The translations under genes and the position numbers were made by a program. Positions 7,679-48,819 of a DNA stretch of 64,000 nt are shown here, piece by piece. How positions within the stretch are numbered: position 1 is the first letter of the stretch; the number at the start of each line of letters is the position of its first letter. The stretch spans positions 17,366,770 to 17,430,769 of the forward strand of contig OZ316893.1 of assembly GCA_973895155.1 (NCBI GenBank), read 5' to 3'. This DNA comes from Marsupella aquatica (lineage: Eukaryota; Plantae; Marchantiophyta). The notes under the pieces are model-generated. The model was not told the DNA's origin. It made no database searches and saw only the letters and a program-made list of their open reading frames with translations.

Positions 7679-7889
7679 CAAAAGGAAGAAGGTTTTTCTC
7701 TGGGTGCTGTAAACTGAATAATATAGAAAATCGTCTTATGTGCAGCAAACTAAATCAGGGCGGAAAACAAGAGCCACTACTGTGAACTAGTTGTAGAGAT
7801 CAAGCAGGTAACTATGGGTTTCCTACCTTGTGATGTTCTTTTGTCCTTTATTTGTTTGCCTTTGGTTGTCATTATGGTTTGTCACACTA

Positions 7890-8235: not shown

Positions 8236-8344
8236 ATCCTTGCAAAAGTCTGTGGAGTGAGAAAGTGCAAGAGTCTTTGGTTAGTTTGTTTGATTCAAAT
8301 TGTTGAATTCTTGATTTTGAGAATGAGGTGCTTCAGTTTTGCAG

Positions 8345-12747: not shown

Positions 12748-12764
12748 TACTTACTTTTAGACTG

Positions 12765-25528: not shown

Positions 25529-28500
25529 TCACTGCAGACTAACACACTCTGATGGCCAGAGCACAAGAGATCTTACTGCATCTGCAATTATTTCCTGAGG
25601 TGGATCATCGTCTCTATTTGGAAATGACAAATTACAATCAGATACAATCACTGTACTCAACAACACTACTACATGGTCATCCGGGACCACTTTGCCATGG
25701 AATTTAGCATGATCCGGTCGCAAAATGCCTGTACCCACACATACTTGTGAGTCATCCTCCCATGATAGAAGATTATGGACTGGCTCTACTGTGGCTATCA
25801 CCTTCACCTTACCCTGGCTATTTTTCTTGGCTTTCCTGGGTGGCTTATACATGACATTATTCATACCTTGGTTGCGAGTCATGACTTTGGCACGAGTGTT
25901 TTGTGCTAGTGATCAAGAATTGGCTACACTCTTCTTCAAAGAATCTGCATCCATATTTGACACTTCCGATTGTGTAGCAGGATTTCCCTGCAACATCATC
26001 TCAGTATCTGCCAACATTGTACTTGCTTCAATTGAAGCATCTACAATCTTACTTGCATCCAATGTTGCTCCCAAGTTTTGACGTCGCTTCACCCTGCTCC
26101 CACTTGGTTGAGAGTCTGTCAACTCTGCATCAACTACAATTCAGTGTCATATCCAACATAAGTCAATCACTCATCACATGTGCTAAATGTACATGTCACC
26201 AACCACAAAGTTGTCACTATCTCCTTACCATTATGAACAGCCTTCTTCCCCTTCTTTGCCATTGCCATATCCTCCATGTCTGCTTCTGTTGATCAATTTA
26301 CACACCACAATATTCAGGTTGAATCTATTAACCACTGAATTGTTTCTCAACATTCATATAGAGGAATTTAAAGCATCAGCTTACCTAATACCTCCTTGGC
26401 TATGGTCACTGAGGCACTGGGCACATCTTTTTCATTATTTCTCTTTGAATCACCTGATAATTCAATCATGATGTCACTTCAGATCCCAGTTGATCCAACC
26501 AGTTCTTACAGAAAAGATTACCTCCAACCTGCTTAAGCTTCACAAACTCCATGCACTTTTCAAATGATTCATACTGGATCATAGCAGGTTACCTGTCTCA
26601 GCAACCTTCTTGCCCTTCTGCTTACTGATTACAGGGTCCTTCTCTGCCTCCACTCTTCCTACATTCAAACCATTCACTCAATTCATGAAAACTTAGTTCT
26701 AACATTTGAACATAGGACACAATGAACAATGGGCCGGTGTCATTTCCATACATGTGTCAGATTTGCCAATTCCCTTTTATGTTAACAAGGGCACACTTTG
26801 TACAATGTTGCCCTCATTGTTTGGTTGGGAACCACCCAATTTTTCAATTACAAGCTTGAAATTAGATTCCACTGATGCAAGAAGGTTCGCTACAGATGCC
26901 TCCACAATATCCAAACGATCAGCCAATTTGTTTCCACTCGAGGGAGTCCACACTCTAATGACTTCAACCGTTCATACATCTCTATGAGAGTTGTAACAGT
27001 TCCCTGTCATAACACAGCTTACGTATCTCAGATAACTGTCCCCAAGAACTGGTTGCTTACTTCGTACTACATTTCTTTCTGATGCTCAAGGCCAAATAGT
27101 CACAGAACATACAAAATTACAACATAATCACCGGTTTGGAAGTCACACTTGTCACCTCACTCCTTTGTTTCATGATCGAACTCCTCTCTCACTTCTTGTG
27201 CTGATGGTTCTTCACCTGTCAATTTCTTCTGCAGTCCACATCAACATACATATGCATGAAACCAAGTGTTGATTGTCAATGAAAATGTAATAATGGTAGC
27301 AAGATGATAAGTTTGAGGCTTACTATCAGGCATGTCACTGCCTTACCAATTGTTCTTTCACTGGAGCATAACTTCCTCTCCCAGCCTGTGAAAGGTGTTT
27401 CACTTTGCCTCGAGCATTTGACATCACTTCACTCTTGCTCTGTCCAACCTCCGACATGAACCCTTTGATTAACCGTGTCCATTGATCCAGTTCCAATGAT
27501 GGGGGTGGTGACATTCTCCTGTTAGAACCATTGTCTATCCACATCCTTTTCAACCTATGCCTCTCTTGTTTCAAAATCCTCATTGCATAATCTGATATGC
27601 AATCTTCAACTGGGCCCTTACCATCATTACCAACATAGTCCCACCGTTCAAGAATGTCCTTGCAGATAGCAGCCCAATCAGCTTTGTTCTGACTCCTAAG
27701 CTCTGTAATGCTCAAATCTAACCAACGCAATACTTCTCCTCTTAGGTCAGAATGCCAACGGTTCTTACCATCACATGTGGGAGTTATCCAACCATCGGAA
27801 TTCACTTCTATTTTTTACCAAATTTGTTACTGTCTCCTGCCTTGGTACTCCCTGAAGTGCTACTAGGTGTCCCTCCACGGCCTGGTGTCCCCCCACGGCC
27901 TGGGGTCCCTCCACGGCCTGATCTCCCCCCATGGCCTGGATTGCATTGTCCAAACCTCCCTGGAGTCCCTGCACATTTACAGGATCCATTAGGTAAGTAT
28001 GAAGCATAAATTTTGCTGCCAAATATACACTGGACTTCAGAGCAATTCTGCAATGACCAAGTTACCTCTCCCTTGGCGCATAGATGGTTCTGGACCACCT
28101 GTCCAATTGCTTTGTCTTGATGAATTAGCGTCGTTTCTCCTGCCTATGAATGATTGCCTCCTATCTGAACATGGATGGCCTTTGTTGTTTTTGTGATTGT
28201 CCCAATCAGAGTCTACATAACAACAGGTACATGCCACACTGATGGACCTGTAAGATAAACTCTTTGCCATAGCTAGACATCAGATAAGTCCATATTGAGC
28301 TAAATCTCTACTACCATCACAAAATCACTAGCACAAGGCACTTACTTGTCCAATCATCCTCCTCACCTTTCCATTGCCCTCTGTACCCAACTCTACCACG
28401 CTCTGGGTGTTCATATTCATCCCATCCATCTTCTGCTCCATCATAGTCATCATCATAATCATCAGGCGTCCCTTGCCAATAACTCTGGCTCCTTCTAGGG

Positions 28501-28865: not shown

Positions 28866-31800
28866 CTATTGCACATCATCAACCTCATCATATTCCATCT
28901 CCCCAGGTTCATCATATGTCTCTCTCAATGTTAACGGGATGAAGTCGGTCCTTGCCCGAGTTGGAACTACAGTCTCCTGACTAGGATGCTCGAATGCAAC
29001 ATGGTCGTCCAAACTGAACTCTACTTTACTTCCATCCATCCGCCTGTTCCGTGCTTGGCTATGGCATACCACCCTCCAGTCATGTGACCCCTCCACATCT
29101 AGAAAGAAAGCCTGTTCAACTTGGCTAGGGAAAACAAAAGGCTCAGACCATTCTGGTACTCTGGACCTAAAATTGGCCAACAAGAACCCATCAGGATCAC
29201 GCTTCATGGTGGCCCTTGGCCACTGCCATTCTGATTTCACCCATGCTCCCTTCATCAATATTACAGGGACACTTGTGTTACCATAATTCAAGACCCAAAT
29301 GTCTGTCAACTCCCCCACGTAACCCATCTTCATCCACCCCCTCTGTTCTTCAGAGGTTCTCTGCTCAAACACAAATATCAAACCACAATCATATGATACA
29401 CAATGGTCACCCTGCTCATCCCTCACTCGATAATGATTTCCATAAGCTCTCATCCGTTTGTAGGTCAGAATAGACAATCGTGGTGGCACAGATAGAAGAT
29501 ACAAATCCTTCTCCATATTTGGGTGATGTCTACTATGCTCTCGAATTGCCACCCGAATCCACTGCTCGAACTATGGGAAGGGATCCTGCTGCCCAGAGTG
29601 TGCAGTTTTTTGCATATCATATTCCCTGCAATATGAGGTATAGGCATAGTTAGGTCTAAACAACACATGACAACCTAAGATCACCCTTGGAATAGACAAG
29701 AAGCATCACAACAAAGGCAAGTCAATTCAATCACTCACCTCCACCATGGTTGCATAGGCTCTGTGTTTGCCAGCACATATGAATGAGCCTTGTCTCGAAT
29801 CGCAATAGACAGTTGCACAGCACATCCCACACCTTCAACAACCTCGCCACTCACTCCATCATCTTCACCAGATTTCCAAACTCTTGTCATAGCTTCACCA
29901 GACCCAGCCATGTACTCTGTTAGGAACCCCAACGTCTCATCCTTAATGTACCCCAATGCCATGGAAGCCTCTGGCCTGTAGTATGTTCTCACATGACCTT
30001 TCAACAACTTCATGTATCGCTCCATAGGGTACATCCATCTCGTACTGACTGGCCCATACTGCCGTAGCTCTTCTACCACATGGATTAGGAGATGAGTCAT
30101 AACATCAAAGAAAGCAGGGGGAAGTATATCTCCAAGTCACAGAGGACATAAGCAACATCATGCTTCAACTGCTCCAATCCTTGGGGATCCCACACTTTCA
30201 CACATATACGGCGAAATACATTGCACAGTCGAATAATGACATTACGGACTGGTTTTTGCACGAGACCTCTGAGGCATAGGGGCAAAATGTGCTGCATCAA
30301 CACATGGTAGTCATGTGTTTTCATACTGCCAAGTTTATTCTTTGTAATATGCTTCTTGAAGGCACCAGCATAGCCAGAGGGCACTTTCAGACAGCTCAAT
30401 CTATACAAGAATGTCTTCCATTCTTCCTGTGTGCACACATAGGGAGCTTGGACTTGAGAAGTACATTGGGATTGCTTGCATGGGGCTTCAACCAAAGGTG
30501 AGGGTGAATCCCCTTCTGTTGCATATCAGCTCAAACTGCTCCTGTATCTTTCTCACCCGACAAGAACTTCAGCAAGCTCTCACAAATATTTTTCTCAATG
30601 TGCATGACGTCCACATTGTGTTTGCTGGGCTCGAATTCCTGCACTCCACAAAGCAAAGAATTCAACAACAGAAACACTAATTAACCAAATAGGAGGATTG
30701 TAACCAACATCAATCCACCATTGCTCCAATCTAAAATGTAGATCATACAGGGGCTGAAGGCTAAGTACATTACCCTCCAGTACTTCAACTCCAAGTCCAT
30801 CAAGGTCTGTCTTTTCACATCGTGTTTCACCACTGGATCCTCAGGTTCTCGATCATGGCACTACTCTTGTCCCAATCAGCCTTCCTGGCTGCCCACCTCA
30901 GGACTTGCTCTCTGGTGACCCTCTGTGGTGGGCCACGAAGCTCTGTTTTGTTGTTGAAGTGTGCAATTTGAGACCGTGTGTGCCTGTAAGGATGATTAGC
31001 AAGCAGATACCTTCTATGCCCCTGAAATTTCATACTGTGTAGGGCATGTGACCACTCACTTGTCACATTTTTCCCACATGGTGTGCACCCCACATAGCCC
31101 TTTGTCACTCGTCCAGATATGATGCCATGGCCTGGGTAATCTGCTATATCCAGCAAACAAATTGCATGGAGTCTAAAGGGGCTGGGTCGAAGAAGCCCCT
31201 TCAGAACATCATGGGTTAACACCCCTTCTATCCACAAAGTCTTCCACTCTTCCACTGCTGGAGCCAACATGATATCTATGAATTGCTCGGTCACAGAAGC
31301 TGGTCCAGGGATTAGCAGCACCATCATCACAAAAAACCTCTTTGTAGTCATCCATGGGGGAAGGTTGTAATTTAGCAGCGTAATTGGCCAACATGAATAA
31401 CGGTTGTTTTTGTCTCCAAATGGGTTTACTCCATCCAGTGATAGACCAAATTGAAAGTTCCGCTTCTCTACAGCAAACTATGGCCACCTCTCATCAACAA
31501 ATTTCCAATGGTTGGAATCTCCAATGTGACGCTGCAGGCCATCACTGCTGTTGTTATCAGAAGTCCATGTCATCAGCTTGGAAATGGTAGGGCATCTAAA
31601 CAGACGTTGTAGTCTAGGAATGAGAGGAAAATGATGAAGAACCTTGGCAGGGTGTGTACATTTCCCTACATTCTTGTACTTGTGCTTACCACAATGAGGG
31701 CATGTCAATTTATCTGCATGCTCTTTGCGAAAGAGAACACACCCATCAGGGCATGCGTCAATAGACACATAGTTCAGCCCAAGGTTAGACATCAATTTCC

Positions 31801-32575
31801 TAGCCTCGTACATATTTTTTGGAATTAAATTACCATCTGGTAACACATTTCGGCACAGGAAGGTCAACAACTCTGTCACAAATATATTGGGAACATTGTG
31901 ATTGCCACAGATGTTCAACAACAACACAACAAAACCCAACTTGGAGCAGTTTGACCCCTCGTAGATAGGAATGCAAGCTTCTTTGATGTGTTTTGGGCCC
32001 CCAAACACCCACTCCCTCTCTGCTGCACCTTCCCCGATGTCAAAGTCAGGTTCAGGTGGGCCTACTCCAATGTGTGGTTGCGGTTCATTGTCCTTTTCTG
32101 ATTCCACTGTGTCGTAATAAGCATCAAGGTCTTCAAAAATCTCTTGAACCATTCTTGGGACATCCATCCCACCGTCCTCAGTGACTGCCTCTGCATCTCC
32201 ATCTTGGTCATCCACGTTCTCATGTTGTACCCCAGGACCATCCTCTGCACCGTCTATGTCCTGCTCTACGTAGTCTCTACGCCTAGCTGTATTAGAATCC
32301 ACAAAGTCAGCTCTCCACTCTTCATCAGAGGAGTCTTCTTCTGCTGGTACATTCCAAACCCTCCACCTAGGGTGCCTTTCATGCCGCAGCAGGTGAAGGT
32401 GCACAGTGTTCAAACTCAACGACTTGAATCCTTGGCACTGTGTGCATGGGCATCTCATCCTCCTACTCCTACCTTGGGCGGCCCAGGCTTGTTCACGCAT
32501 CCACAATTTAGAATCATGATGCCTAATCCTAAATGGGTTGTGAAGAGGCAACCTTGGAGCCATCACTATACACAC
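28866..32575 (-). pseudogene. CACTA TnpD transposase (Transpos_assoc, Transposase_21, DUF4218, DUF4216)
   Basis: RCPCTQC; IDACPDGC; LSLDGVNPFG..YNLPPW; DYPG..CTPC; DVMHIEKN; MKTHDYH; RWMYPMERYM; EPFVFPSQVEQAFF; in-frame TAG at 31478-31480, further frameshifts and introns. Confidence 0.95.
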
Positions 32576-32774
32576 GCACTTAGCGCTTTGTCATTTTATT
32601 ATGCGAGTGAAAAATACACTCCCTGTTAAGGATTTCACCCCTGACTATACTTGCCAAAAGACGTAGCATAGCATTCCAAAAAAACAAAAAAACAAAAAAT
32701 ATAGGTGCCAGAGTCATGTACCTATTCTCAAGTGAATGAGACAAAATTCCTAAATGTTTGAGGGTGTCAACTCC

Positions 32775-35700
32775 TGTCGCACCCCTACCCTGGGCCTTAA
32801 ATCCGGGTTAGTGTCGTGGTGCGACCTCGACCACCAGTAGGGGTGAGGGTTCGGGCAAGGAGGTGTGTAGTGACCTTCAATAGCCCTAAGTCGGGCTAAG
32901 CCGCTATACTTACTGGTATAACACTCGCATAATTCGTACTTGTCATAGGTATATTTATTTTCCACCGCTGGAATTTTCCCTCAGTTAGTGACGCGGACTA
33001 ACTCCCGACTTGGGGCTTTTCAAGCCATCGACGTGACAGGACCTTGTGACATGCAATGAGTGGCAATCCCTACCATTAGTCCGCACCCGGTACGTCCCTT
33101 AAAATGGCGCCTTTGCCCGGACAAAGCATACACACAACACCAGTTACTCTCAGAAACATTAAGGGGAAAAGACTACATTTACTCAGCGAAGCATCAGCTT
33201 ACATGGTTGACTCGACTTCAAAGGGGGTCAGCAGGCCCAACGGCAGTCGATGCCCAGTCTCTACGAGGCCCTGCCTCGCACTTGCCCAGCAAGCTTGACT
33301 CTGGCTCTCACTCCTTGGTACACGCTGACCCTACTCAGGCCGGGACTCCCCGTGCCTCGCCTTTCTTCTACTGAGATAACTAAGCCTTCTCCCCCTTCCC
33401 ATCGCGGAAGGGGAAGCCTAAATACTACCATAGCGGAAGAGAACCAGAGGATACTACCTTCCGGGGTACTACCTACTGACTAACTAACTGCTGACTACCG
33501 GTCGCGCTGCACTGACTGGTTGACCGTCGACTACGAGTGTGCCAACCGGAATGGCAGCGGCCAAGCCTACTGACAAACTCTAGTCCGTTGATGGACTCAA
33601 TCCTACGTTGGCTGATCCTAACTGACCGGCCCTAATTCTTCCTACTGCCGCTAATCGACGCCTAATGACAGTCATTCTGTCGTTACGCCTAACTAAAAGA
33701 TGCCGCTGACTTAACCGCCTTGCGTGGCGCCTGCTTCTACCCTTCGCTAACTACCCCTTACGTGTGTGCAGTGGTTGGACCAGGGCTGGTCCCCTTGTCG
33801 GGGCGAGACCTCGAGCCGCCTTGATCAGAGGTGGGCCCAGGTTTTCCCCGCTGGAGGACGAGCAGGGTGACGCGGTCCTGCAAAGCCTTGTTGTCCCGTA
33901 ATGCTTCCTCCGCCTCGTTTGCAGCTTCATCGGCTTCGGTCTGGAGCCGCGCCACCTCCAAGTTGAGCTGGTCGATGGCGTCGCGATGGACCTGGTCCTG
34001 CGCTAGCAATTTATCTCGTTCGGCGGAGAGACTAGCCACCTGCTGTGCTGCCTGCAGGAATTGTTTGTTGAGGTCGGTCAGGCTGGTAACCCGAGCCGAA
34101 GATTCTGAGTGTAATTGAAGCACGGTGTCGTCCAGCTTCTTGAGTTCGGCCTGCGCTCCGCTTAACTCCTAGGTTAGTCTGTCCCTCTGTTCGACAGTGC
34201 GGACTAAATCCTCGCGGCGGGTCGTTGCCTCCTCCTCGAGGTGCTCTACCAGCATCTGGAGACGCCCGATCTCATTCCCCTTCGCCATGAGTTCTTCTTC
34301 CAAGCGGCTGACGATCCGTGGTTGGTGCTCTAACATGAAGAAGGCTGGCTGAAAGTACGCCGAGACTTGTTGTCCGATGTATGTTGCCAACTCCCCAGAC
34401 ATAGTCTGGCTAAACTTCTGGACCAGGTCGTAGGCCATGGTCCCCAGGGCTACTTGGTAGTCCTCCATCCTCTCGGGTACCGGTGGTTCCTCGGCAGGGG
34501 CAATGAGCTCCTCCGTAGTCAGCGCTGGGGAGGGGAAGGTTTCTTCAGGTGGTGGAGGGATTGGGGGTGGTTGTACTGCAGGTAGCGGAGGCTCAACGGA
34601 AGGAGGCGGTGGAATTTCCATAGGGGGCGGTTGCGGAGTATTAGTCGGGGCTTCCGGCTCGAGGTTTGTCCGAGGGACAGTAGTCCGCGTAGTCGGGGTT
34701 GCCTCTGGGGCGGGGGTGACATTACCCGGGGCTGAGGTGGCCGTATTCTTTCCTCTGGCCTCCCGCCGTGCCTTGTACCAGGCGAGGATAATGGCGATAT
34801 GACTCCCCAAGTAAGTCTTCCCTCCAATAGCCATACCACCCTGAGCCCGCTTTAGCTCCCCCGAGAATCTTCGGTAGAAGAATTGGGCCCAGTTTCGTCG
34901 TTTGTACTGTTCCACCTGCACTATCGTGCAGAGGGAAATCTCGGATCGTGGCTCAATCATGTGTAGGGTAGTCCGTATGAAGTTAAGCCGCTCCATACAG
35001 GTTAAGTTGGTGCACGCCCCCTGCTTGTATCCGTTGTCCGTCTTACCCTCGGGTTTGAAGTGCCGCGGCGTATACTCCTTATCCCAAATTCGGATTTCCA
35101 CCGGCACCGGCCCGGTTGGTAGGCCAAAAATTTGCGTTAACCGATGCTCCGTGAGTGATAAGGTCTGCCCCGAAACCTTGGTGGTTGACGCATCAGTATC
35201 GAAATTGGAGATGAACTCACAAATCTCCTTCGGCCCGACGGCGCACGGCCTCCATAGTAAGTGGGCGAACTGCTCCAACTGATGCTCCTTGAGATAGTCC
35301 GCATGTTTGAGTTTCTTGATCGCGATCCAGACTACCTCGGGGACGCGGATTACCTGTAATAAGTTGGACTTCGGGTTATCCGGGGGCCGTCGGGTCTGGT
35401 TGGTCGGGGGGTTTGCCGGGGCAGGTGCAGGCGCGGCGTCGGTCCGTGTTGATTCGGGGGCCGTCGTAGTCCTTGACCGCTTATGAGGACGCTGTTCGAG
35501 TTGCGAACTAGCTCGCTCGGAACCCGAAGAACACTCCGCGTTGATTACTGGACGGACTTGGGACTGGTTTGGCGGTACTCCGGTGGTCATCGGTTGAGGC
35601 GCTGGGGTAGCCATATCCCAGTTGAAGGCGTTGGAGCTTTCCCCGAGGAACGTGAGATTACGCGCTGCTTCCCGTTGTCTGCTGATATCTTCTTGGCGCT

Positions 35701-36609
35701 TTTCGGCTGTGATCTGCTGGTCTAGGTACCCCGGAATCTTGTCGAACTTTGCTTGAGTAAGCTGCTGGTTGCCCTTCAGCTTAAAGAACTTAGCTGGAAC
35801 CTCAAGAATCGCCTCTGCTACCGATCTAAGCCCTTCCTCGCTGAGATATAGTTCGGTGATGTAGTCTCGCAGCTCGTTATAGCTAGAATCCCTGGTGATG
35901 GCTGTCCTTTCGCAATTAACCAGTGCTACCTTGGTTACCAGCTTCGCGTACCTTCGTTCGTAAGCGGCTTTCTCGGGGCAAGAGTACCAGTAAGTCTCGG
36001 AGAACTTAGCACCTACCTCGCCAAACAAGGTCCAAAATCCCAAGGCTGTGAGGGTCATACTAACCTCGTAGTCCGGTTCATTGCGTCCACGTTCCCACCT
36101 GGCTGGTCCTTTCTCGCGGAGGCCTCGCTCGTCTTGACTAAATCTCGCCACATTCCGCTCTTCTCCCTCGATAATTTCCTCGTAAAGGTCGACTGGATTC
36201 AATCAAAAAGGCGAGCGGATGGCAGCGTCCGTGAATTCCAAAAAGGTAAATGTGAGCGAATGGCCCGCAGTGCCATCGGCTCCTCTCTTATGGGGGTGCC
36301 CGGACGAGCCCGAGCGTGAGAAGGTCAGGCCGTTTGGTCATTGATAACGAGCTGAAGTCGGTGTCTCGGTCCAAGCGTGATTCTTCTAACTGATTTTTAC
36401 TCCGCTGCCGCCACCGTACCTCGGTCGTGCGTAATAATCCCTTTCCTGAACTCGTAATTATTCGGTTATCTTAACCTACTCCTAATCTAATCATAATGGC
36501 AACTTGACGGCTATACGTGCTATTCTACGCTATGGCTACGGTCCTAATGACCGTATAAGTCCTAATCTACGACCTGGGTTCGGTCAAGTGACACGTTACC
36601 CGTGTCACA
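32775..36609. mobile_element. 3,835-bp solo-LTR-like insertion with 5-bp TSD
   Basis: Begins TGTCGCAC, ends GTGTCACA; TSD ACTCC at 32770-32774 and 36610-36614; no terminal direct repeats, no gag/pol. Confidence 0.88.
33758..36202 (-). pseudogene. ~815-codon gene inside the solo-LTR-like unit: plant-mobile/Transposase_32-like domain, Pro-rich linker, coiled coil
   Basis: ORFs 34169-36202 and 33758-34123 are in the same frame, separated by one TAG; ICEFISNFD..LTQIFGLPTG..DNGYKQGAC..RNWAQFF motif. Confidence 0.8.
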
Positions 36610-36614
36610 ACTCC

Positions 36615-37304
36615 TCCGCTGTCCCCACATGTACTGCCTCTGCACGTACATCCATGACCATATCAGAGTCCAATCATGTATAGTCATAGACACAGGTGCC
36701 AGGTGCGAGACCGGTGTGAGATGTCCTCATCTTACTACCACATCAAATACGGATACCAATCCTGTTGTCGATGCCACTCAGCCCTGAGGTACTCAGGCAT
36801 GTACATTAAGTCATCAAGGTCTAAACCCTGCTCATGCCATGGTGGTCTTCGATCCGTGCCTACAGGCAGTGGCAGCAGTGCCCTCCACGGTGCACATGTT
36901 GCTACCAAGTCCCTCCACTGGGTACTAATTAGTCTATATTTGCATATATCTTGTGCGCCAGACACCACAAGAACCCTCGGCCAGACATGTGTAAGAACTA
37001 TATCATCTGCCCAATCAGGCAACAAGGAACCACCTACAGCATCGTGCTTGTCTAACTCATTTGCTGAAAAGTAAATGTCCTCTTCGGACTGTGCATCCTC
37101 ATTCACCACAACATTCACAACACATCCAAGGTCTGTAGGCATTATCTCGGATGGAGCTACACTCTGTCTGGTTACCAATCCACACATGTAAGCCCAAGCA
37201 GTAGCCATGCACAATGCAACCCGTAGGAGGATCCTACATAGGGCCTGTCGGTCTGGAAGAGGCAGCATACCCACCAAAGTCTTCAGCCAAACAGAGCCCA
37301 GCAA
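36615..37304 (-). pseudogene. F-box domain cargo gene (last codons displaced to 32750-32774 by the insertion)
   Basis: LLPDWADDIVLTHVWPRV..ICKYRLISTQWRDLV..W is an F-box pattern; downstream frame reads ..VHVGTAEE/LTPSNI* across the ACTCC target site. Confidence 0.7.
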
Positions 37305-37499
37305 GTAGATTCACAGTCACACCCCACGCAGCAGGAAACAACAATCACTTCAACTGCGACCAACCATGACAAGATGAGTTAGTTCAAGGATCACATTTAT
37401 TACAAAATTGTGATTTATACAAAAATATGAGGGACTCCTACTCCCCACTCTCTCCCACCATTGCTAAGCATACATCTCTGTTGAATCTTGGAGGGCCAG

Positions 37500-38306
37500 G
37501 CCTCAAAAATATCAAAGTCCCAAGAATTCTGTCACTTCCCTCTCGCTACTGATTCCAGAAGCCAATCAGGGGAATGCACCCAAAGATTGTTGTTCATGAC
37601 AAAATGACGCACTATTGTCTTAAAGAATTTTCTGCATATTTTCATGTATGACAGACCTACAACATGAGTGGAGGTTTCTGTTAGACTCTCCTCCACTGTC
37701 CCACCTAGCTCAACAACTGTGGACTTGTACAGTCTGCACTTAGTCTCCCCAATTCCCTCTTCTGCAAATACCACACTGAACCCCTTCATAATGGTATTTC
37801 TCTCCTTGCCATGCTCATTCAATATAGCATCTGCACGCATAGGATGGTGTCCTATGTTGACAACAGGTCCATATTGGACAAGCAAAGTTGGGTTTCTCTG
37901 CCGCTGCTTCATAGGCTTCCTTTTCAGCCAAAGCCTCTATAGTGGCCTCCTCACTCTCCCACAACTCATATTGCTCAGTACTCTGTACACACCTATGATT
38001 AACAGAATCAGTCAGCCAAGAGACTTCAACTACTTTTAGACCTTGGTTGGTAATGGCAAAATCAATGAAGGACCATGACCACTTGTTCATCACATCCAGC
38101 CATGTCCCCGCAACAACATGTGTAGTCTGTGGAGTGATGTCCTTGACTTCAGTCCCATGGAACTCTGAGAATTGTTTTTGTACGATTGGCCAACTCACTT
38201 GGGTGAACCCATAGTGGCCAGGAATCAAAATGGCTTTGATTCCAGCCAACAGAGGCGGGTGGTCAACCTTTGTACGTTTCCTAGAGGTCATGTACACATG
38301 GGCCAC
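37500..38306 (-). pseudogene. Tandem BRCT-domain cargo gene
   Basis: BRCT1 LLAGIKAIL..HGTEV..TTHVVA..VVEVSWLTDSV..EQYEL; BRCT2 MKGFSVVF..ELGGTVEESLTETSTHVVG..VHSPDWLLESV; frameshift between ORFs 37815-38306 and 37532-37912. Confidence 0.88.
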
Positions 38307-38888
38307 CTAATCACTGCAGACCGGAAGATAATGCGTTCACCTGATAATTGGAGGGCCCTTAAAATGTTGCGTTTATAACTTGGTCCAGTCCAGTCGTCTG
38401 GTGAGTCTCTGCTCCGATTCCAAACGGGAGAAATATTGGGACAAACGTACTAGACACCTGCAAGGATGCACCTCATAGTTTGAATATGTGCCTTCACAAT
38501 ATTGAAGGTGACAAGTGAAATTGTTTTGTGATGCCACATACAGATGTTGTAAATGGGCAGACATTCAATGAGAATACAAAATGTTGGTACACTTTAAGGG
38601 AATTCTCGCAAATTAAATAGCCTGTAACTTATATGCTCATAATGAGAAGTCCTGATTTAATTTAAGCAGTGTCATGTAAGTTGTGATCAAAATGATTGCA
38701 GAGTTAAAAAAGTTCCTAGAAGGCTTAAGGGGAGTTTTTGAAGGCATGTACCCAGGAACAAGTAATGAACTTAGGGAACTTGTTGCCTAAGCATCCTCTC
38801 CTACAGAGGTCCTTCTTCTCAAAATTGGAATGTCTGCAATCTCCAAGGTATCCACATCAGGTGCACTATGCATGTATAGTATTCAGGT

Positions 38889-39567
38889 TCAAAGCCAAGA
38901 AATGTGATCTCTCATGGGAGTGTGCAAAGTAGGATCTATGGCATGGCGATGACAATAGAAGATCCATCGATCAACACCATGTGCAGAGTGATGATAGATG
39001 TGTCTGTCACAAGCATAGCCTTCTGCTTGACGCTCCTTCAAACAATGAAAGTGCCACATGGTGGGACACCTAACACAGTGGACTATGTCCACCCAGAAAT
39101 CTTCATCGTGCTAACCACATGCCTTGCACTTATGAAGTGGGCAAGCTGTGGCAAGATCGGGCAAACATGAAAAACAAAAGAACCTCACAATATCTGTCAA
39201 GGCATTTCCTAACAAGTGGTGGAGCATCAACAGAGCCCTCATAAGACCCCAACATCCCACACTCTGCACACTTAGCTTGCTTCTCCAAACAATCAGTGCA
39301 CATCCAGCCTCCCTGGTGTGCTGACGGGAGGCCCACCCCTGGACAGTTGTTTTCTATAGCAAGGTCAAACTCCGGGTTGAGGTGGAAATGCCTCATCCAA
39401 GGGCCCTCACATATGGCTAAGCCCCCACCATCGTCACAAATGGCACAACAATGAGCTGCCTTCTGGAAAATCTGACGTGCGGAGAAGTTACTACCATCTG
39501 GCCCAACTACACCTGTGTTGCTCACCTCTGTCCCCCGCTTCTTGGCTCGGATTTTAGGGCGTGCCAT
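38889..39567 (-). pseudogene. EDM2-type PHD-finger cluster cargo gene
   Basis: CAICDDGGGLAICEGPWMRHFH..C..WMCTDC..KCAECGMLGS..C..C; after a 1-nt frameshift (~39185) FFCFSC..ACPLHKCKACG*..CVRCPTMWHFHCL..IFYCHRHAIDPTLHTPMRDHI, which follows the EDM2 PHD region and its ID..L.TP.RDH tail; TAG at 39111-39113. Confidence 0.82.
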
Positions 39568-40238
39568 GCCTACGCATGAGATAGATAGTACAATTTAGCA
39601 GAGTGCAGAGACAATACGATTTAGCAGTGTACAAAAAGTACAGTGTAGCATATAGACTAGAGTGGCAATTGCTACTGCAATGAAATGTTCACACACAGAT
39701 ACAGAGTAGACATACTTTTTGGTTTGTTGAGCCCACACTGAAAACTGATCCCCTAGTACAATAGCTCCACCTACACCTCAATTTTGTGGCTATGATTCAC
39801 CAAAGGAGATTTGCAGCAAGATTTAATGCATTTGAATCACATACAATAGTCGTGACATGTAAAACAGACTTTTTTGGAACAGGATTGGTATCAAGCAGTG
39901 TGATCAGGGTTGTAATTTATACATCCTAAATAGGCTATGATAGTGAATGAGACAAATAAGTTAGGCATAAATCACTTTTTCCATGTTATCACATGGCCCA
40001 TTAATTCCAATCTTTGAAAGGAGACTTTTAAGTGAGCTTGCTAGCCTCTTAAATTAGGATATATATTCTACTTAGTGTAGCCATAAGAGGATAAGTTATG
40101 TACTGTTGACCCTAAACCCTGGACCCAAAATTGCTCAAAATTCAAAATTTTAAGTAAATATCCTCTCTGTTCAAGTCAAAGTGTTAAGTTATAGGTCAAT
40201 GGTCTGTGGTCTATGCATGCAGTGTGACAAGTGGTCCT

Positions 40239-40688
40239 CTAGAGCGTGTGATCCAAACATGTGTAGACACCAAAGTCACCGGTGGTGGGGTCTGGGAGGG
40301 CAGGACAAGTGACATCGCCAGGCACACTACAGGATGGCGAGTGGTTCCAGATGATACATTGTGCTCTGTGCAAAAACCAACATCCAAGAGAACGGTCATC
40401 CAACTCTGGGCCAGAAACCCTACAGGCAGGACAGTCATATTGGCAACTATGCACACACCCTTGGCACCTAATTTGTGGTGGGTCATGTACAAGAGACAGG
40501 AATACCAAGGATGTCGGGAAGGGTACTGAAGCAGGTAGAGGCCGGCTGTAGTTGTTCCTAGCAACAACAGGGTACTCAAAGTACCATGCAGACTGGGCTG
40601 GAAGGATCCCAAGTCTGACATACTCAAGGTGCAACATCTCTTCCTTGCGTGCAAGTTGCACATGTTCAGCATTGCGGGTCCTCACCAT
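40239..40688 (-). CDS. Cys/His-rich protein of unknown function (probable cargo gene)
   Basis: Open 149-aa frame with CQGC..CPAC..C..H..C..H..C..C..C..H; same strand as the other cargo genes; no family recognised. Confidence 0.45.
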   Translation of the reverse strand: MVRTRNAEHVQLARKEEMLHLEYVRLGILPAQSAWYFEYPVVARNNYSRPLPASVPFPTSLVFLSLVHDPPQIRCQGCVHSCQYDCPACRVSGPELDDRSLGCWFLHRAQCIIWNHSPSCSVPGDVTCPALPDPTTGDFGVYTCLDHTL

Positions 40689-42502
40689 AAGTGTTGCTTT
40701 TGTGGAGATGTCCTGTGTTCATGTCCTCTGATGAGCACCTTCAATCAGCAAGGTGAGCAGGAGCTGTATTTGCCTCACCAACAGCAACCAACCTTAAATT
40801 ATCAGTTCCCACTCACTGTGTCATTCCCCTGGTTCCAACTAGAGGTCACAGTATAAACATAGCATGAAACAGTCCTAATCAACTTGCTTACAAACTACAA
40901 TATCCAGAAAGAGTGAAAGTCTCACCCTGCAGTGAGCAACAGAGACGTAGTTCACTGGATGTGTTGATATGCAGTTAAACCTCCACTATTGCTTACTTCC
41001 AGTGTATGCTGCTCAGAAGAAGACATCTTAGTAGCAAAAAATGTAGTCTTACTAATACTTCACCTTCTGACTGAATTCTAGAGGAGAGTTGAATTGCCAA
41101 TTATAGCAGGATGAGAATGAGTGTGAGAAAAATGCCGACACCATAGGCAAACAATGAAAAAGTAACAGGGTTGGGCAACGTACTCCACCTACCACCCTGC
41201 ACTTAGGCCGCCAACCAGCACTTGGTGTAGCGGCCTGAACTTTCACGGTCAAACGTACACTTGGACAATTAAAACATATAAACTTTCGCTAGGAAACTTT
41301 GATCAGTCTAGGGAGGGGATAAATGCTCTCAGTTCATATTGAGGCTCAATTTTTGTTTCAGTTGATTGGAATGATGGCAGAATGCCTTATTCACTTTGCT
41401 GAAATTCAGCAGGTCAAAGCAACAGTTGCAATGAAGGACACTATGTACATAGACACAATTAAGACAAGAATACTTCAATCTATACTGGAATCCAGGTTGC
41501 ACAACTTACCAGGAAAAAGGGGCAGTTGGAGCAGGAGCTCTGCAACAAAGGCACCACCACAAAGAATGCTAAAAGATGTCAACCGCCCATAGTTGAAGGT
41601 AAACACTGTGAGCTTTTGAAAACAGACAAGGCATGAGGGATTCATCCAATGTCCCACTTCAAGGCAAGACAAAACTATTCATCCATCACAGCAGTGCTCC
41701 ACAGGAATGAAACCAAGCAAAATTTGGTGACCTCGGCCGATGACAAGGCCAATGTAGTTCACAATCCTTGACCGATCAGGATATGGATTGGAATTACAAT
41801 TAGTCAGCTCTTCTTCTTTGTTTTCTAACTCTGGGGCAAATGAGCATGACCAGGGAATTCTCTGAGAAATAGAAATGCACAGGGAAAATGAAATTGGCTC
41901 ATTGAGTTGCGCAAGACCGACCACTGCAGCATACTTGGACAGTTGTTCCGCAAACCATAAAATACCCTGACTTACATGCAATCTGTACACAACTTCTGTT
42001 GGCTGTCCTGCATCACGGCAGTGGCGTTGGGACAAGGTAAGTGAATATTGCCATAGCTGAAGCACATTGAGCGTGCAGCAAGAAGTGAAGGAGCATGGCC
42101 GAAAGCAGAAAAGAAAGACAGACAGGTTTTACAAGAAGAAAACTAACAACCGCCAATCTGCTCAAATCCGTTGCACAGATCAAACCCTTTGAACTACACA
42201 GCCCTCCTTTGAAAACAATCCAATGTGCTTTGGCTGGTGGATGACAAGGACTGGGAGAAGAGGAAACGTCTGAACAATCAATCCAAATGACGGGACACAG
42301 AGACCAGGCACAGAGAGGATTTGTGCTTAGACAAAAACCACAAATTGTAGCATGGGCACCATAGCATGGGCGCCATAGCATTGGGCGGCAACGGGAAGAA
42401 TTACATCAAATGAGTGGACAAAGAATGAACAGTCCGGTTATAGGCAAACGGCGACTGATGCCCTGATGCAATGAAACATGCATTGACATAGCGAAGGGAC
42501 AT

Positions 42503-43160
42503 AAAAACTACATAAGCCAACTTATTGACCCTTTAAGGCCCACAATTTCAAGGGGAGGGACAAAGACAGCAATAACAGACACAAAGACAAAGCTGTACTC
42601 TGTCAATTGAGTAGGCAAGTGGGTGGGTGAAGATCAACAACCAATGTAGCAGCGCAGCCAGAGTAGCAACAAAGAAGCAACTTGCCCTCAGTCTCCTATT
42701 TTGCAAGCAGATTGTGCTCGCCCTTAATCTCCTATTCTGCAAGCAGCTCACGCTCGTCCCTCTTGTTCTGCAAGCAGGTCATTCTTGTCGGTGATGGTGC
42801 AAGCTGTCCTCCTAAACTCTGAAACCCAAAATGAATGTCAAGACCAAGCACCTCCAATCTGTTCGATCCCTTCTGCAAGCAGCCGAGCGGCAGACGACAA
42901 TGTAGGGATCAAGAACCAAGTGCAAGGCGGACATTGCACAAAATGAGGAACGGGGGCAGAGACAAAATCTACCAAAATCTACTTCCTGGGGTCCAGCCCA
43001 CGGATCAGCTGAAAGATGCGCGAAGGGGAGAAAAACTACATAAGCCAACTGACCTTTTTAAGGCCCACAATTTCAAGGGGAGGGAAAAAGAGACAAAGTT
43101 GTACTCACTAGATTGAGTAGGCAAGTGGGTGGACGAAGATCAACAACCGCAATAGCAGCA
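42503..43160. repeat. ~140-bp direct repeat spaced ~530 bp apart
   Basis: AAAAACTACATAAGCCAAC..TAAGGCCCACAATTTCAAGGGGAGGG..ATTGAGTAGGCAAGTGGGTGG..AAGATCAACAACC at ~42503 and ~43031. Confidence 0.85.
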
Positions 43161-43449
43161 AAGCCAGAGAGGAAACAAAGGGGAAATTTGAGCAAAGGTA
43201 AGCGACACCGACAACTCACCCTCCGCCTCACCCTCCGTCTCACCCTCCCAGCTCCAAAGTTGCAAGAGCAAGCAGTCAAACACACTGAAACAAAGCGGGT
43301 GGCAGTTTCAGTATCTCAGGCAATGCAAAATTAATCCATACTTAATCAGCCCTGGTCGCATGTTCCTTCAAAGCCCCTCATACTAGCAAGCAGGTCTGGC
43401 CTGTGAATCTTGTAGTGCTTAACGATACAAAGCCTTCCCAAGTACCAAT

Positions 43450-46400
43450 TGTAGTATTGCATTAAGGACATAAATCAGCATTTAATGCCCAAAACTCGGT
43501 ATTCGTTCCCATGGAAGAACATGTTGGGAATGGTTTTCTATCAATTAACACTTATGAATGACTAAGGTGTTGAAAACACAAAAGTGAGCCTTTTACTATG
43601 GATGCTCAGCAAGGCATAGATTTAAATGTTTGCTTAACATTATAAATACGATTAACAAAATGGAATAAATTAACAAAACACAAGAAAATCTTGAGGTATG
43701 ATGAGGGAATTTGGAATAGACCAAGGTAACTCCTCAACAACACTTAATTTGTGATGATTTAAGGTGATAAATCCGTAAGAACATTTCTGGAATGAAATAC
43801 TTTACTAGGATAATTATTAAAATGCCGTCAACATATCTTAACCTTTCCTTCCAAGGTACTCAGTTAGGATTAATAACCAATCACTTCAGCATCCAGTCGG
43901 TACTCCGAGTCACGAATAATGAACACCATCATCGTCAAACTAAAGTCATAGGTAATTGGTCAATAACATTCTTTGCATCCCGTGCGAAAGCAATGTCATG
44001 CCAAAAACTTATGCATCAAGAACTTAGGAATGTATAGCCTTCACCAATTAAGGAATCTATCTCCATACATTCAAAAGATTTCATCATTTCACAAGGTTTT
44101 ACTTCTCTGGTTTGATCTCCAACATTCAAACACAAGGAAGGGGGAAGAATTCCTTTGTATTAATCACTCATGCAAATACAGAGTTTCTCTCTACAAAGTG
44201 AAGCCTTGTCATGCTGCAAATTTGCAACATAGTGCTTACATAATTCTTTCACATTTCAAATGACATAAATTCTACTTTATATAGGCTGGTAGAAACCCAA
44301 GGAGAGAGAAAATGAAAGGACATGCCCTTTCATGCCTCAAGGGTTCTTGAACTAAAGTAAAAATAACAAAGGTGTGCTATAGTAGTACCTAAGGGTCACA
44401 TGAGGGTTCCTGGTATATAAAACTAACCAAAAGGTATTGCAAATGTGAACTAATGTAAAAGTGACATTACGGTAAAACTAATGAATAGTGGCTTTGTCCT
44501 AATTTTAGTTTCTAAACCAAATATCAGTTTGAGATGAAACATTCCCAGAGTATTCTCTTAGGTATAGTCTTCATGCTGGTAAAATCTCAGACTTTTCTGA
44601 GGTGTTTAGGTACTTCAATAAAATACCAAAAAGTACCGGAAATAAAGAACTATAGAAAATCGAAAAAAATTCTAAGTGTTTAAGGCATAAACACGTATAC
44701 ACGTAAACCCGTAAAAGCGTAAACTCGTAAAATCGTAAAATCGTAAAGACGTAATCGCGGTGCAGCAAAAACTTAGCAGATTCAAACATTTTTAACTTCC
44801 TAGCTATAAGTCGGCTTGAGCTGAAACTTTCAAGGATGATTCTACTGCATAATGACTACCTCCTGAAAAAGTGTGAAACTTTTCTGACCATGAGAACTAT
44901 TTAACTAAAATATCAGAGATCGGCTGATCGTGGTAATTGCACACACAGCTCATTTTTGATGAAGTGCTTTGGAGTCCGGCTCTTGAATCTTCTAGTCTGC
45001 ATTGCTTCTCCAATGATGTCCAGTCTTCTTTCTTGGTAGCATGCAAAGAGCAAGGATTTATATGGCGATCCTTGTCCAATAGAGGCAATAGCCTCCGATG
45101 AAGCATAACATCAGGTAAAATGTTCAGTTGATCTAAATTGTTACAAAAGGTAGCTATATTACACCTTTGAGCTAGAAAAAGTTCAAAATTCATAAATTTT
45201 CCATCATTTCCAACTAATCTTACTGCAAATCGATCTTCTTTCCGGATTTTCCCTCAGCGCTTTATCTTCTTTTATCGTTCGTTCAATCTGACATTGTTTT
45301 CTTTCTTTGCCAGTTTTGCACTGTCGCTTCTCTGCTCTTCTCAGATCGCATTTCTCATTGTAGTTCTGTTTCCAGCACCAGCTCCTCTCTCACATCCGCC
45401 ATAGTCTTCGACTCTTCACTTGAAAATTTCCTCTTTTCACAATCATGTTGTCCTGCGCTGTTTCTCTCTCCAAAAGAATCTCAATAATGCTCTTCTGGAG
45501 TACCCATTTCAGACATGTTCTAGTTCTTCAAAAGAAAACATCAACAGCGAAAATCAATGCAGCTCCAATTCCTTCTCAGCTCTCAGCATCTCGCCTGCTC
45601 CGCCTTTTGTCTGCACCGCTTTCTACAGCTACAACAAAAATGAATGATTTTCTCCCAAGCCCGAGCTCCTTAGCTCTTTTCTATTTGTCTTGCTCACTGG
45701 TTCTCTTTGCCTTCACCATAGCCCTGATTCTTCACGACCAATCTTCCCCTATTCCCCAAAAAACGACTACGGCTATTCACACTCGCGAATTTCATCAGAA
45801 CTTTCTCCTCTTCCAGTGACATTTTTCCGAATTCCATTCATGATCCGTTCTCGTTTCCTACCACCCTCCAGTCCTTCACTGCTCATCCACAAGTTCAAAA
45901 GTTATCTCTCACCCATGTTCGCATCACGCAACCACCACAATCAAGCACACCAAATCTCCAAGTTCTCCTCGACTGCCTCTGGACGCCCTTCTTTTCTCAG
46001 TTCCACACTCCATCCCGTTCGATCTTACGTCCTCTATCCTTAGCCTCAGATGATCACTTCAACACGATCACAGCCTCCCGAAACAACTGATCGACTTTGC
46101 TGTAATTTCATTTCCCACATTTGAACACCTTCTCTGTCCTTAAGCTATCGGTTATTCATTTTTGCCATCTCATCAAAACAGGAGCTTGTCAACACCATTA
46201 CCCTTCGCTTCCGCCACACCTGCTTTGCCCTATATATTAACCCAGAAAATTTCCAACAGCATCCACGACTACCAAGCTCCGAATTCCTTATCGGACCTTA
46301 GCCTTCTCCCAAGATCCAAAATCACAGCGCACCACACTCTTCGGCCTATCCCCTCTCTTCTTTTCCTCTGAACTCCCTGGCGCACACACATCACTCACAA

Positions 46401-46962
46401 CCCATCTCCACAGCTCCTTTGATCTGCCGTTTTTCTTTCCTTCACTTTATTCCAATGCTCGCCATCGCCCACCTTCCAATTCCTCTTTTCTGCTGAAGTT
46501 TAACTTTCACCATGTTTCCATGAACATCCCTTCATTCTATGGCCGACCCTCATCACTCACTCCTTCCACTGTAACGATCACCTCCGTTACTTCCATAGCA
46601 GTCGCGACCAGACGAGTAATGACCACGCGCCTCCGCCACTCGAAAAAAAATTCTCCAGATCTCCACACACAACGACCATCATCCTCGGCTGAATCTCACT
46701 CAATCACCCTGAGCTCTCTAGCGCGCCCACTTCCCGAGAATTTTTCTAACTCCCTCTGCGTGTCTAACTGCTATCTCCAACATGTCCTTATGAATTCGAA
46801 TACTCCCAGGCCGCCACATGTCACTTCCACATTAAATGCCTCAATTTCCTTAAGCCTAAGCTTCAACTTTCACCCTTTTATTCCTCTTTTGTCTCAATAA
46901 CCTTCATCTCAAGTTCAGTTTCCTCTTTGTTTCTTTCTTTCACAAAACAGAGAAATATTACA
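43450..46962. mobile_element. Possible degenerate long LTR nested in the CACTA
   Basis: TGTAGTAT ... ATATTACA inverted ends, non-coding LTR-like composition, CGTAAA micro-repeats ~44690-44750, minus-strand CTATATAAA ~44277; no matching TSD. Confidence 0.35.
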
Positions 46963-47414
46963 TTCCGAGCCGGTCAAAAGTAAGTCGACTAGATCCAGCA
47001 CACTCCACTTCAATTGTCAAACATTTTTCCCGACGACACCGGTGGGTAATATGTGGGGTTTCAATGAACAATGGGCCAGTTTGAGAATGATTAAGAAGCG
47101 CGCACCCCACGTTCTTGGGTGGTGGTTGGGTGGGGTTTTGTTTGATAGAAGAAGAAATCACCATTCTCTTCTGGAAGAAAGAAAATCGCAGGAAACAGTG
47201 GGCGGGAGAACAAGGCATGTAATAGAGAACAACAAGGCATGTAATAGAGTACTTGTGGTTACTCTAACGGTGCACGAACACTCACCTTTGTCTTCCGCTT
47301 TGTCTGCTGTGGCTAACAAATCCCAGAGCGCTGCCGAGCTCGGTGGTTGCTCGATGGTTGAAAGTGCGCAGCTCACGTCCCTACCTCAATGTTCAACTCA
47401 ATGTGGGATGCAAC

Positions 47415-47492
47415 AGCTCCTCTTGGTCGCATCTCCTCTTGGTTGCATCTCCTCTTGGTCGCATCTCCTCTTGGTCACAACTCCTCTTGGTT
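47415..47492. repeat. 16-bp microrepeat CTCCTCTTGGTCGCAT x5
   Basis: Direct inspection. Confidence 0.85.
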
Positions 47493-48819
47493 CACAGCTA
47501 GCGCGCAGCAGCGCTCGATGGTTGACAATGCGCAGCTGAGCTAGGAGAAGAACTGAATGACTGTGGCTGCTTTTCTCTACTGCCGAAGCACTCGGCTGGC
47601 AGCTCTGCAAACATTGATCGTAGCTGCAATCTCTACTCCATTGATTGAAGAGCCTCCCTCTTCAAAGCTTGGTTGACCTAGCTCTACGATTGATGGAGCT
47701 TGTCATCCTCTGCATCAAAAACCCTCCACCACCCGACCTTGCACGTTACACAAAGCTCCTTACCACCAAGCGCTTCTCAGGGATGCCTCGCAACAATGTC
47801 CTTACCACCTAACGACTCTCAAGGCTGACTCACCCAAACCAATGCAAACCCCTTGCAATCTAATACACTGTGTCCAAACAGAGGCAAAACTGTCAAAAGC
47901 GCTCGCAGTAGTGGATGCAAAAATGTGAAGTGAATGAGCTCCGACCTTCCCTCGCAAAATGCTTACCCTAAACTCTGCTTGTATGCTAAACTCACAAACA
48001 TGAAGCAGGTCGTTCTGTTGCAAAGCACAAATGATGGGTCCCAAACGCTTGGGGTGCGGACACTCAATAGTTCCCTTCACAAAAACGGAGTTTGATACGA
48101 TGACCAAGGCATACTCACCCTAACCCAAGACTTAGTGCAAACAGGACCCTAAACGCTAATCAAGGGCCCGTTTCCGTTGAGTTGAGCTGTTAGGCTTGAT
48201 AAGTCCTGGCTAGAGTCTTCATGTAGGGGAACAATGTGGACTTAATTAGGCAACAAATGAGTACATTTGGGTGAGGGTAAAGGATAATTTTAAATAAATC
48301 CCTCTCTGTTCAAGTATGGGGCCACTTAATCAGTTGTGCCCCACCCTAACCCCCCCTCCGGGCCCCCCTCATGGAATTACCTCTATCAAAAGTACCCTAA
48401 GTTATGAAAAGTACCCGTTACATGGATCTTTACGGTGCAATGTTAGTTAACGTTGGTGATATATACAAGGCATGTTCCTTAAGCACTGCGGCCAAAATGT
48501 AGCACGTCAACCGGTCCTTTTGAAGTACACTCTTATGATGAACCCTTGTAAGACTATCGAGTGTCCTAGTCTTTGTGTGGACCTTTATTGTGGATTCCAA
48601 GAATAAAATCCATGATATATGTGTAGAGTGTTCACCCTTCACAAAATAGCAAGTACACTTTTCATAGTCTTTAACTAAACCGGGAAACATTCAAAGTCTT
48701 TTATAGTCTTTAAGAAAACCTTGGCAATGGATGCGAGTCGTTTAAAGTATGGAAGAAGGACTTAGTGGGCTTAGTCCTATAAGGTATGGTCTAAATTGCC
48801 CCGGTTTCTACTAGTGGCA

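Follow-up and report, generated by a model that had tools for sequence, protein, structure and literature searches.

We analyzed a 64,000-nt stretch of the Marsupella aquatica genome (contig OZ316893.1; hereafter the window, whose positions are used for all numbering) that contains a CACTA transposon with four accessory genes upstream of its transposase gene, TnpD. One of these genes belongs to a family of short proteins made of three PHD fingers, and it begins with residues that resemble the tail of histone H3. We tentatively suggest that its product may act as an H3-tail decoy; other possible roles are weighed below.

The element and its cargo

The element spans 24670-48816. Identical 18-bp terminal inverted repeats (TIRs; CACTAGTAGAAACCGGGG) stand at both ends, and GCA is duplicated on both flanks as a 3-bp target site. 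The insertion target was a coiled-coil open reading frame (ORF) of another repeat, and the frame of that ORF reads on over the empty site. An earlier reading of the window (the original prediction) had placed the boundaries at the same positions, and our analysis upholds them. The CACTA...TAGTG termini with short TIRs, the 3-bp duplication, and the domains of TnpD assign the element to CACTA/EnSpm. We infer that the host is a land plant from those TnpD domains together with the named relatives of the PHD module. Downstream of TnpD, a TnpA-like gene is suggested by a Transposase_24 match that is weak and below the cut-off (Table 1).

As had been proposed, four co-oriented ORFs lie upstream of TnpD on the transposase strand. 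They comprise a Cys-rich ORF, a PHD gene, a two-BRCT gene, and an F-box-like ORF, separated by spacers of 671, 597, and 389 nt. The cassette had been drawn as 32750..40688, a span that does hold the four ORFs, but 3,835 of its 7,939 nt (32775-36609) are an unrelated nested insertion. Without that insertion, the cassette is 3,954 nt long, and 331 nt separate its end from the start of TnpD. The ratio of observed to expected CpG is 0.92 in the nested insertion, compared with 0.21-0.40 in the cargo genes and 0.31 in TnpD; the same depletion in the four cargo genes as in TnpD would be expected of long joint residence. The nested TG..CA element is a high-copy repeat with one long ORF and many internal deletions among contigs, in which we found no pair of long terminal repeats (LTRs) and no reverse transcriptase or integrase. 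Its ORF is 28-36% like an ORF (22019-22420) of the repeat that received the CACTA element.

The copy in the window is damaged, contrary to the original description of its lesions as few. In the PHD gene, the frame shifts near 39185 and meets a stop at 39111-39113, and residue 57 has changed from Cys to Trp; the BRCT gene has a frameshift near 37879. TnpD carries stops at 31478-31480 and 30531-30533 and frame changes near 30447 and 30118, that is, at least two of each.

Table 1. Positions of the CACTA element, its genes, and the insertion nested in it
Feature	Position	Strand	Evidence or remark
Target-site duplication GCA, left	24667..24669	.	
CACTA TIR, 18 bp, element 3' end relative to its genes	24670..24687	+	
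TnpA-like pieces	25529..27814	-	Pfam Transposase_24 match 27338-27814, E 0.025, below cut-off
TnpD transposase, broken in this copy	28866..32563	-	Transposase_21 E 3e-51, DUF4218 E 2.6e-23, DUF4216, Transpos_assoc
Nested TG..CA insertion, 3,835 bp, outside cassette	32775..36609	-	5-bp target duplication; 677+136-codon ORF
F-box-like ORF, ~110-135 codons, start uncertain	~36735..37142	-	Pfam F-box E 0.07, below cut-off
Two-BRCT gene, 253 codons in family	37532..38291	-	BRCT 30.5 + 19.8 bits; BRCA1 profile match E 8e-5
Stand-alone NSD/EDM2-type triple-PHD gene, 226 codons in family	38889..39567	-	Collinear intact relative P0002; three NSD-type PHD Pfam families in order
H3-like N-terminus of PHD gene, MARPKIRAKK	39538..39567	-	Fits H3 tail mimic definition iM-Z-R-X-K
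Cys-rich ORF, 149 codons, intact, start MVRT, no known family	40239..40688	-	Two full-length relatives; 7/10 listed changes synonymous
Upstream internal region, likely atypical for family	41036..48300	.	Contig depth drop, loose ends
CACTA TIR, 18 bp	48799..48816	-	
Target-site duplication GCA, right	48817..48819	.	

The PHD lineage and its N-terminus

The PHD gene lacks introns, and in its family form it encodes a 226-aa protein that consists of PHD fingers only. An intact relative of the same length, P0002, is collinear with it and identical at 177 of 226 residues (78%). P0002 matches PF23011, PF22908, and PF23004 in order, each below its cut-off; P0006 and P0011 exceed the cut-offs. A HMMER search with P0002 returned 248 matches at E 0.001, of which the top seven are 166-245 aa long, 43-64% identical, and without exception unnamed or hypothetical. 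The next matches are long plant proteins, mostly 31-42% identical, many of which carry the RFD domain (DNMT1-RFD) as EDM2 does, and that domain is confined to the long matches. Three host-like matches reach 47-50% identity, over short stretches. Nearly all nonfamily matches are EDM2-like plant proteins.

Among the best 150 matches, 18 fit a family profile better than a host profile; 17 are short, and one is a long borderline case. In each of the three trees, a branch separates the family from the host proteins, with support in the Shimodaira-Hasegawa-like approximate likelihood ratio test (SH-aLRT) of 99 (56 rows), 90 (148 rows), and 100/99 (31 rows), the 56- and 31-row sets being subsampled or hand-chosen. 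By its profiles and trees, the PHD family is a distinct and old lineage of short PHD-only proteins. The label "EDM2-type" that the original prediction gave to the gene fits the PHD module. Its accompanying claim of descent from a host EDM2 is neither rejected nor shown by approximately unbiased (AU) tests, which reject one of four groupings (p was 0.23 when the family was grouped with the EDM2-like rows of land plants, and 0.46 and 0.038 when it was grouped with one or the other of two liverwort paralogue groups); the free tree sets the family outside land-plant EDM2. More broadly, the four genes had been presented as host-derived regulators, and host origin was established for none of them. 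A search for P0002 found no matching locus in metagenome or viral contigs.

The PHD protein starts with MARPKIRAKK. Histone H3 1-10 reads MARTKQTARK, and the two share R2, K4, A7, and K/R8 in register. The sequence MARPK fits iM-Z-R-X-K, the definition of an H3 tail mimic (H3TM), and eight of the 16 family rows contain Met-Z-R-x-K, which coincides with the predicted start in seven (the N-region set of 16 includes the borderline long protein). Among about 21,000 human proteins, 48 begin in this way (PMC8166343). A longer motif, R-x-K-x-x-[AS]-[RK], is present in 10 of the 16 family N-regions, once off register, and in 0 of 86 host-like regions. Shuffled controls gave a mean of 0.16 and a maximum of 3 in 5,000, and other motif spacings reach 2 at most. 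When the family N-regions are anchored by hand on R-x-K, A7 is found in 11/16, K9 in 8/16, and A1 in 8/16, and positions 10-20 are mostly unconserved.

Acidic residues before PHD1 would bind H3 Lys4. No acidic residue occurs among the six positions before PHD1 in 15 of 15 family members, compared with at least one in each of 120 others and three in AIRE. In addition, Cys replaces the His ligand of PHD2 in 9 of 18 family proteins and in 0 of 133 others. For comparison, an acidic surface of UHRF1 binds the H3 tail (PMC7060239). Prediction of a complex between the PHD module and its own N-terminal tail gave no verdict (score 0.14, mark 0.34). The protein resembles a mimic of the H3 tail, with a reading pocket that has degenerated, more than it resembles a plain reader of marks. 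Of the "histone-mark reader" in the original prediction, the PHD module is upheld, and the loss of the acidic patch speaks against a plain reader.

The cassette across the transposon family

Nine runs from seven studies match part of the window, and seven of the eleven listed runs were compared (X4, X6, X10, and X11 fell outside the comparison). Runs X1, X2, X3, and X5 represent organisms A, B, B, and C, respectively; one run may be the window's own source. Contig records matching the window number 12,157 in X1, 6,795 in X2, 3,770 in X3, and 379 in X5, and they cover 30 of 30 bins. The dominant X3 contigs have a depth of 1,767-1,912, which is not a copy number, alike on TnpD, F-box, and BRCT and on the joint left by the nested insertion. 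That insertion is jumped by contigs in three of the four runs (X1, X3, and X5), which skip 3,840-3,848 nt with joints at 32767-36608 and 32769-36611 and in this way connect the F-box side to the TnpD side. Run X7 holds a relative that is 88-97% identical, with pieces on all four cargo genes. Cover in X8 and X9 is patchy (24/30 and 7/30 bins), and these runs were excluded as whole-cassette carriers.

The frames that are broken in the window are repaired in the contigs. Two letters are restored at 39185 in all four runs, which gives the PHD frame of 226 codons, and two at 37879 in three of them (X1, X3, and X5), which gives the BRCT frame of 253 codons; the latter is open in most X3 and X5 contigs. 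PHD residue 57 (39397) is Cys in the contigs and Trp in this copy. Where this copy has its stop at 39111, P0002 has Glu, and the stop was absent among the 40 of 1,155 variants examined. Measured against the contig majority, 10 of the 11 near-fixed coding differences of this copy in cargo frames are nonsynonymous, as expected of decay after insertion. The copy that we studied is dead, but the family is not: the cassette is a stable trait of a multicopy CACTA family, and its cargo frames are open in most copies. Cargo is found across family contigs rather than in this copy only. The same cargo in all four runs, from three organisms, and in X7, together with relatives 78% and 52-53% identical to the PHD and Cys-rich proteins, supports the view that the cargo is no single-copy Pack-type capture. 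Past 41036, contig depth drops about 30- to 60-fold, with loose ends (41086-41400 being the stretch compared there), so this copy is probably atypical in its upstream part, and most family copies probably differ from it upstream of that position.

Selection was gauged from 40 of 270 variants, 28 of which lie inside cargo frames, with a synonymous expectation of 0.31. The Cys-rich gene is under purifying selection, with seven synonymous changes among the ten listed (p 0.013) and two of the remaining three in one codon. For the PHD gene, where none of four listed changes is synonymous, purifying selection is implied by the full-length relative P0002. Synonymous changes make up 1 of 5 in the BRCT gene and 1 of 9 in the 5' part (37111-37255) of a long F-box frame.

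The Cys-rich protein has two full-length relatives (P0003-P0004), which are 52-53% identical to it and in which 7 Cys and 3 His are invariant. All three proteins contain MVRTR, which is internal in P0004. Searches with the Cys-rich ORF found no family and no host homologue, and its alignment had no matching locus in viral contigs. A comparison with the RAD18 RING was not significant (E 0.14), and the idea that the ORF encodes a second PHD was rejected.

Tandem BRCT repeats, also part of the original prediction, are indeed encoded by the third gene. The first repeat scores above the cut-off of 21.3 bits and the second just below it, and a joint profile of both matches the BRCT of BRCA1. Tandem BRCTs have a characteristic phosphoserine-pocket motif, and visual inspection of the BRCA1 alignments did not reveal the residues of that pocket. 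No relative of the second repeat was found among proteins of 73-235 aa, a range that misses a 253-aa protein. A supposed likeness to the BRCT of DNA polymerase lambda was not borne out, as it was absent from the profile matches and ranked 28 in the fold search. Structure models were poor (predicted local distance difference test scores of 38 and 42, with 42 for the BRCT model), and fold searches with them returned nothing significant, with BRCT chains among the weak rows.

The F-box-like motif scores 13.5 bits against a cut-off of 20.5, covers only positions 19-42 of the Pfam model, and found no match in the PDB; the SCF adaptor of the original prediction is so far unsupported. A 191-codon frame reaching to 37310 was rejected as the gene model. 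In its 5' part, 8 of 9 listed changes are nonsynonymous, which suggests that the F-box-like gene starts later, and its core has no listed change. Some contigs of X1 and X5 lack a 43-nt segment at 37060-37106, where a GT..AG 43-mer is present. Removing this 43-mer would put the F-box-like motif in the frame of a Cys-rich start that lies upstream.

Possible roles and known systems

Our preferred explanation, which we hold tentatively and rate a little short of an even chance, is that the PHD protein works as an H3-tail decoy built on an EDM2-like scaffold, likely lowering host silencing of the CACTA family. Removal of the initial Met would free an A-R-x-K end that could occupy host readers or writers of the H3 tail. 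The zinc-finger scaffold, rather than reading H3, might then localize the protein or hold its partners. A second mimic, similar to PAF15 and DPPA3, may be formed by the VRT start of the Cys-rich protein; the VRTK of PAF15 and the VRT of DPPA3 bind the UHRF1 PHD as the ARTK of H3 does (PMC9757060). Finally, the BRCT and F-box-like proteins could be secondary adaptors, which is the least supported step.

An argument can be made against this explanation on several grounds. At position 3 of the motif, where H3 has Thr, eight of the 16 family rows have Pro and two have Thr, and Met is missing directly before the motif in 7 of 16. An M[ATV]RxK start also occurs in 3 of 132 host-like matches, and a short basic motif could be a nuclear localization signal. 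The family has a shared single origin, so that the motif counts reflect retention and not repeated invention. A profile of 11 family N-termini gave two matches in the PDB, the first of which was histone H3 1-10, but the match was not significant (E 0.54) and the 11 had been chosen for carrying the motif. In all three Cys-rich proteins, position 4 is Arg and not Lys, which leaves VRT as the only match and departs from iM-Z-R-X-K. Between the PHD protein and P0002, 35 of 39 Cys/His sites are conserved, compared with 142 of 187 sites elsewhere, which is no significant excess (p 0.085), and P0002-P0012 need not lie in CACTA elements. All 28 listed cargo-frame changes taken together include 9 that are synonymous (p 0.52), and neither BRCT nor F-box has a synonymous excess among them. 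Likewise, none of the listed contigs spans two cargo ORFs, and the family's gene order is read from continuous tiling.

The PHD protein might instead be a miniature EDM2-like reader, one that binds heterochromatic H3 marks on the element and either secures full-length transcripts or steers the transpososome, with a basic N-terminus that is a nuclear localization signal and nothing else. EDM2 itself binds H3K9me2 chromatin and suppresses proximal polyadenylation (PMC7529245). The three NSD/EDM2-type fingers are retained in order, PHD1 resembles that of AIRE (E 9e-4), and several of the EDM2-like proteins that dominate the nonfamily matches have DNMT1-RFD. Nevertheless, the acidic patch that is gone from the family is present in all 120 host-like proteins and in AIRE, the PHD2 ligand change is peculiar to the family, and exact H3 spacing is not needed for a localization signal. 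We regard a reader of this kind as rather unlikely. A broader version of the decoy explanation would be a virus-style counter-defense, in which two H3-like N-termini (ARxK on an EDM2-derived scaffold that no longer reads H3, and a PAF15/DPPA3-like VRT on a novel zinc-binding protein) titrate or misdirect silencing readers and the BRCT and F-box partners route captured factors to repair sites or degradation. This is conceivable but doubtful, and the repair-steering and SCF roles would follow from domain names, with the F-box below cut-off. The single coordinated toolkit for anti-silencing and repair steering that had been envisaged is so far unsupported, and so is selection on BRCT and F-box.

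The cargo could also lack a common purpose. The PHD and Cys-rich genes would then be accessory genes under selection that pass from one transposon lineage to another, and the BRCT and F-box-like genes would be passengers or decaying older cargo. The lack of synonymous excess in the latter two, the missing BRCT relative (lengths 73-235), and the subthreshold F-box fit this possibility, as does the finding that none of 16 distant CACTA loci, many of them short and with TnpD 35-52% alike, has a cargo match. Accessory genes are also known to hop between lineages in red algae (bioRxiv 10.1101/2025.02.11.637652) and fungi (PMC12730594). Yet, the BRCT frame is open in most X3 and X5 contigs and covered in X7, CpG depletion in all four genes matches that of TnpD, and the variant counts rest on 40 listed variants each; we consider this account unlikely. 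Neutral Pack-type capture of host gene fragments that were amplified with the element is far less probable. Pack-CACTA capture is common (PMC13317346), and the nonsynonymous differences show that this copy decays neutrally. However, the ORFs are compact with starts and stops of their own, the PHD gene is intronless and collinear with an intact 226-aa relative, and the best host-like proteins, which are EDM2-like proteins of other plants, are 31-42% identical, apart from the three short-stretch matches noted above. Full-length relatives at 43-64% (PHD) and 52-53% (Cys-rich) and the synonymous excess in the Cys-rich gene add to this, and neutral capture of the PHD and Cys-rich genes is largely refuted.

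CACTA elements with accessory chromatin genes are already known, and what appears to be new here is the set of PHD, BRCT, F-box, and Cys-rich genes together with the H3-like N-terminus. The novelty claimed in the original prediction thus applies to the combination, which we did not find described, and not to chromatin cassettes in the CACTA superfamily. Our literature search, which covered titles and the starts of abstracts, with most subscription papers, Repbase, and supplements outside its scope, found no paper on this cassette or on a transposon-encoded histone mimic; such genes may be among the 962 Spm proteins of a structure survey (bioRxiv 10.64898/2026.08.24.746577) or in the Plavaka tables. 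A close precedent is the giant Plavaka of red algae (EnSpm/CACTA superfamily; 17-19 kb), which carries the accessory genes PAG1-3 (bioRxiv 10.1101/2025.02.11.637652). There, too, a conserved multigene cassette of likely chromatin function includes one gene of unknown family, most copies are degenerate, and cargo moves between lineages of transposable elements. Unlike the nonenzymatic modules next to a plant TnpD that we describe, the PAG proteins are enzymes (adenine methylase-SET and ParB-2OG oxygenase), and PHD, BRCT, and F-box are absent from the accessible text of that study. Fungal EnSpm, ESTA, and Plavaka elements with TET/JBP genes (PMC12730594) similarly have a gene that is proposed to counter silencing and is common to transposon lineages, but it is one DNA-modifying enzyme rather than a set of reader-like or mimic proteins. 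En/Spm elements with 4-5 ORFs have been described in Chondrus (PMC6431247).

Among plant transposons, VANC of VANDAL, miR820 of rice CACTA, and TnpA of Spm (PMC6719617, PMC13317346, bioRxiv 10.64898/2026.08.24.746577) are anti-silencing factors, the latter two in CACTA elements. VANC and TnpA act via short DNA motifs and miR820 via mRNA, and their function has been demonstrated, whereas ours is proposed. The accessible parts of these sources describe none of the three as a histone mimic or PHD protein, and those of PMC13317346 and PMC13547354 contain no occurrence of PHD or F-box. With EDM2 and ELP1 of Arabidopsis (PMC3632883, PMC7529245), the CACTA protein has in common the order of its three NSD-type PHDs, and plant proteins with RFD and PHD are its closest long relatives. 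It differs in being a 226-aa, PHD-only, intronless product that is 31-42% identical and sits on its own long branch, that lacks the N-terminal RFD and the long C-terminal part, and that has lost the acidic pre-PHD1 patch and gained an H3-like N-terminus. With H3TM proteins and PAF15/DPPA3 (PMC8166343, PMC7060239, PMC9757060), it is the starts that are alike, iM-Z-R-X-K in the PHD gene and VRT in the Cys-rich gene. These proteins and the viral histone mimics (PMC13165374) are human or viral and come with binding data; the present case is a putative mimic encoded by a plant transposon gene.

Few transposon factors have been proven to counter silencing, and those that have been work via DNA motifs or small RNAs. 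If the H3-tail decoy is real, histone mimicry, which is known from viruses, would join the means by which transposons counter silencing, and the mimic would help to identify the readers with which nonmodel plant hosts silence transposons. The family also provides the EDM2 PHD module in a natural, minimal form.

Other features of the distant CACTA loci and of the window were recorded along the way. Four distant loci (L002, L008, L013, and L016) have in common a broken, low-complexity ORF of no family on the opposite strand, upstream of TnpD. In L016, a weak match to the N-terminal part of DNA-PKcs (3196-3516, minus strand; E 0.007, below the cut-off) also lies upstream of TnpD; as cargo it was rejected, since it is not common to other loci and is probably flank. 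Within the window, one or more other large decayed DNA elements occupy 27-15499. Repeat arrays lie there at 27-960 and 12894-13876, and two stretches, 2325-2900 and 6482-7189, hold RING-like ORFs. Part of this region (10179-15499) holds a broken transposase without a Pfam match, which we tentatively take to be DDE-like from its motifs. A fragment of an Ulp1-type protease, a domain known as transposon cargo, lies outside the CACTA element at 51487-51963 (Peptidase_C48, E 1e-11). At 53566-60292 there is a near-intact Ty1/copia element, with LTR ends that are 98% alike and one stop between its two long ORFs.

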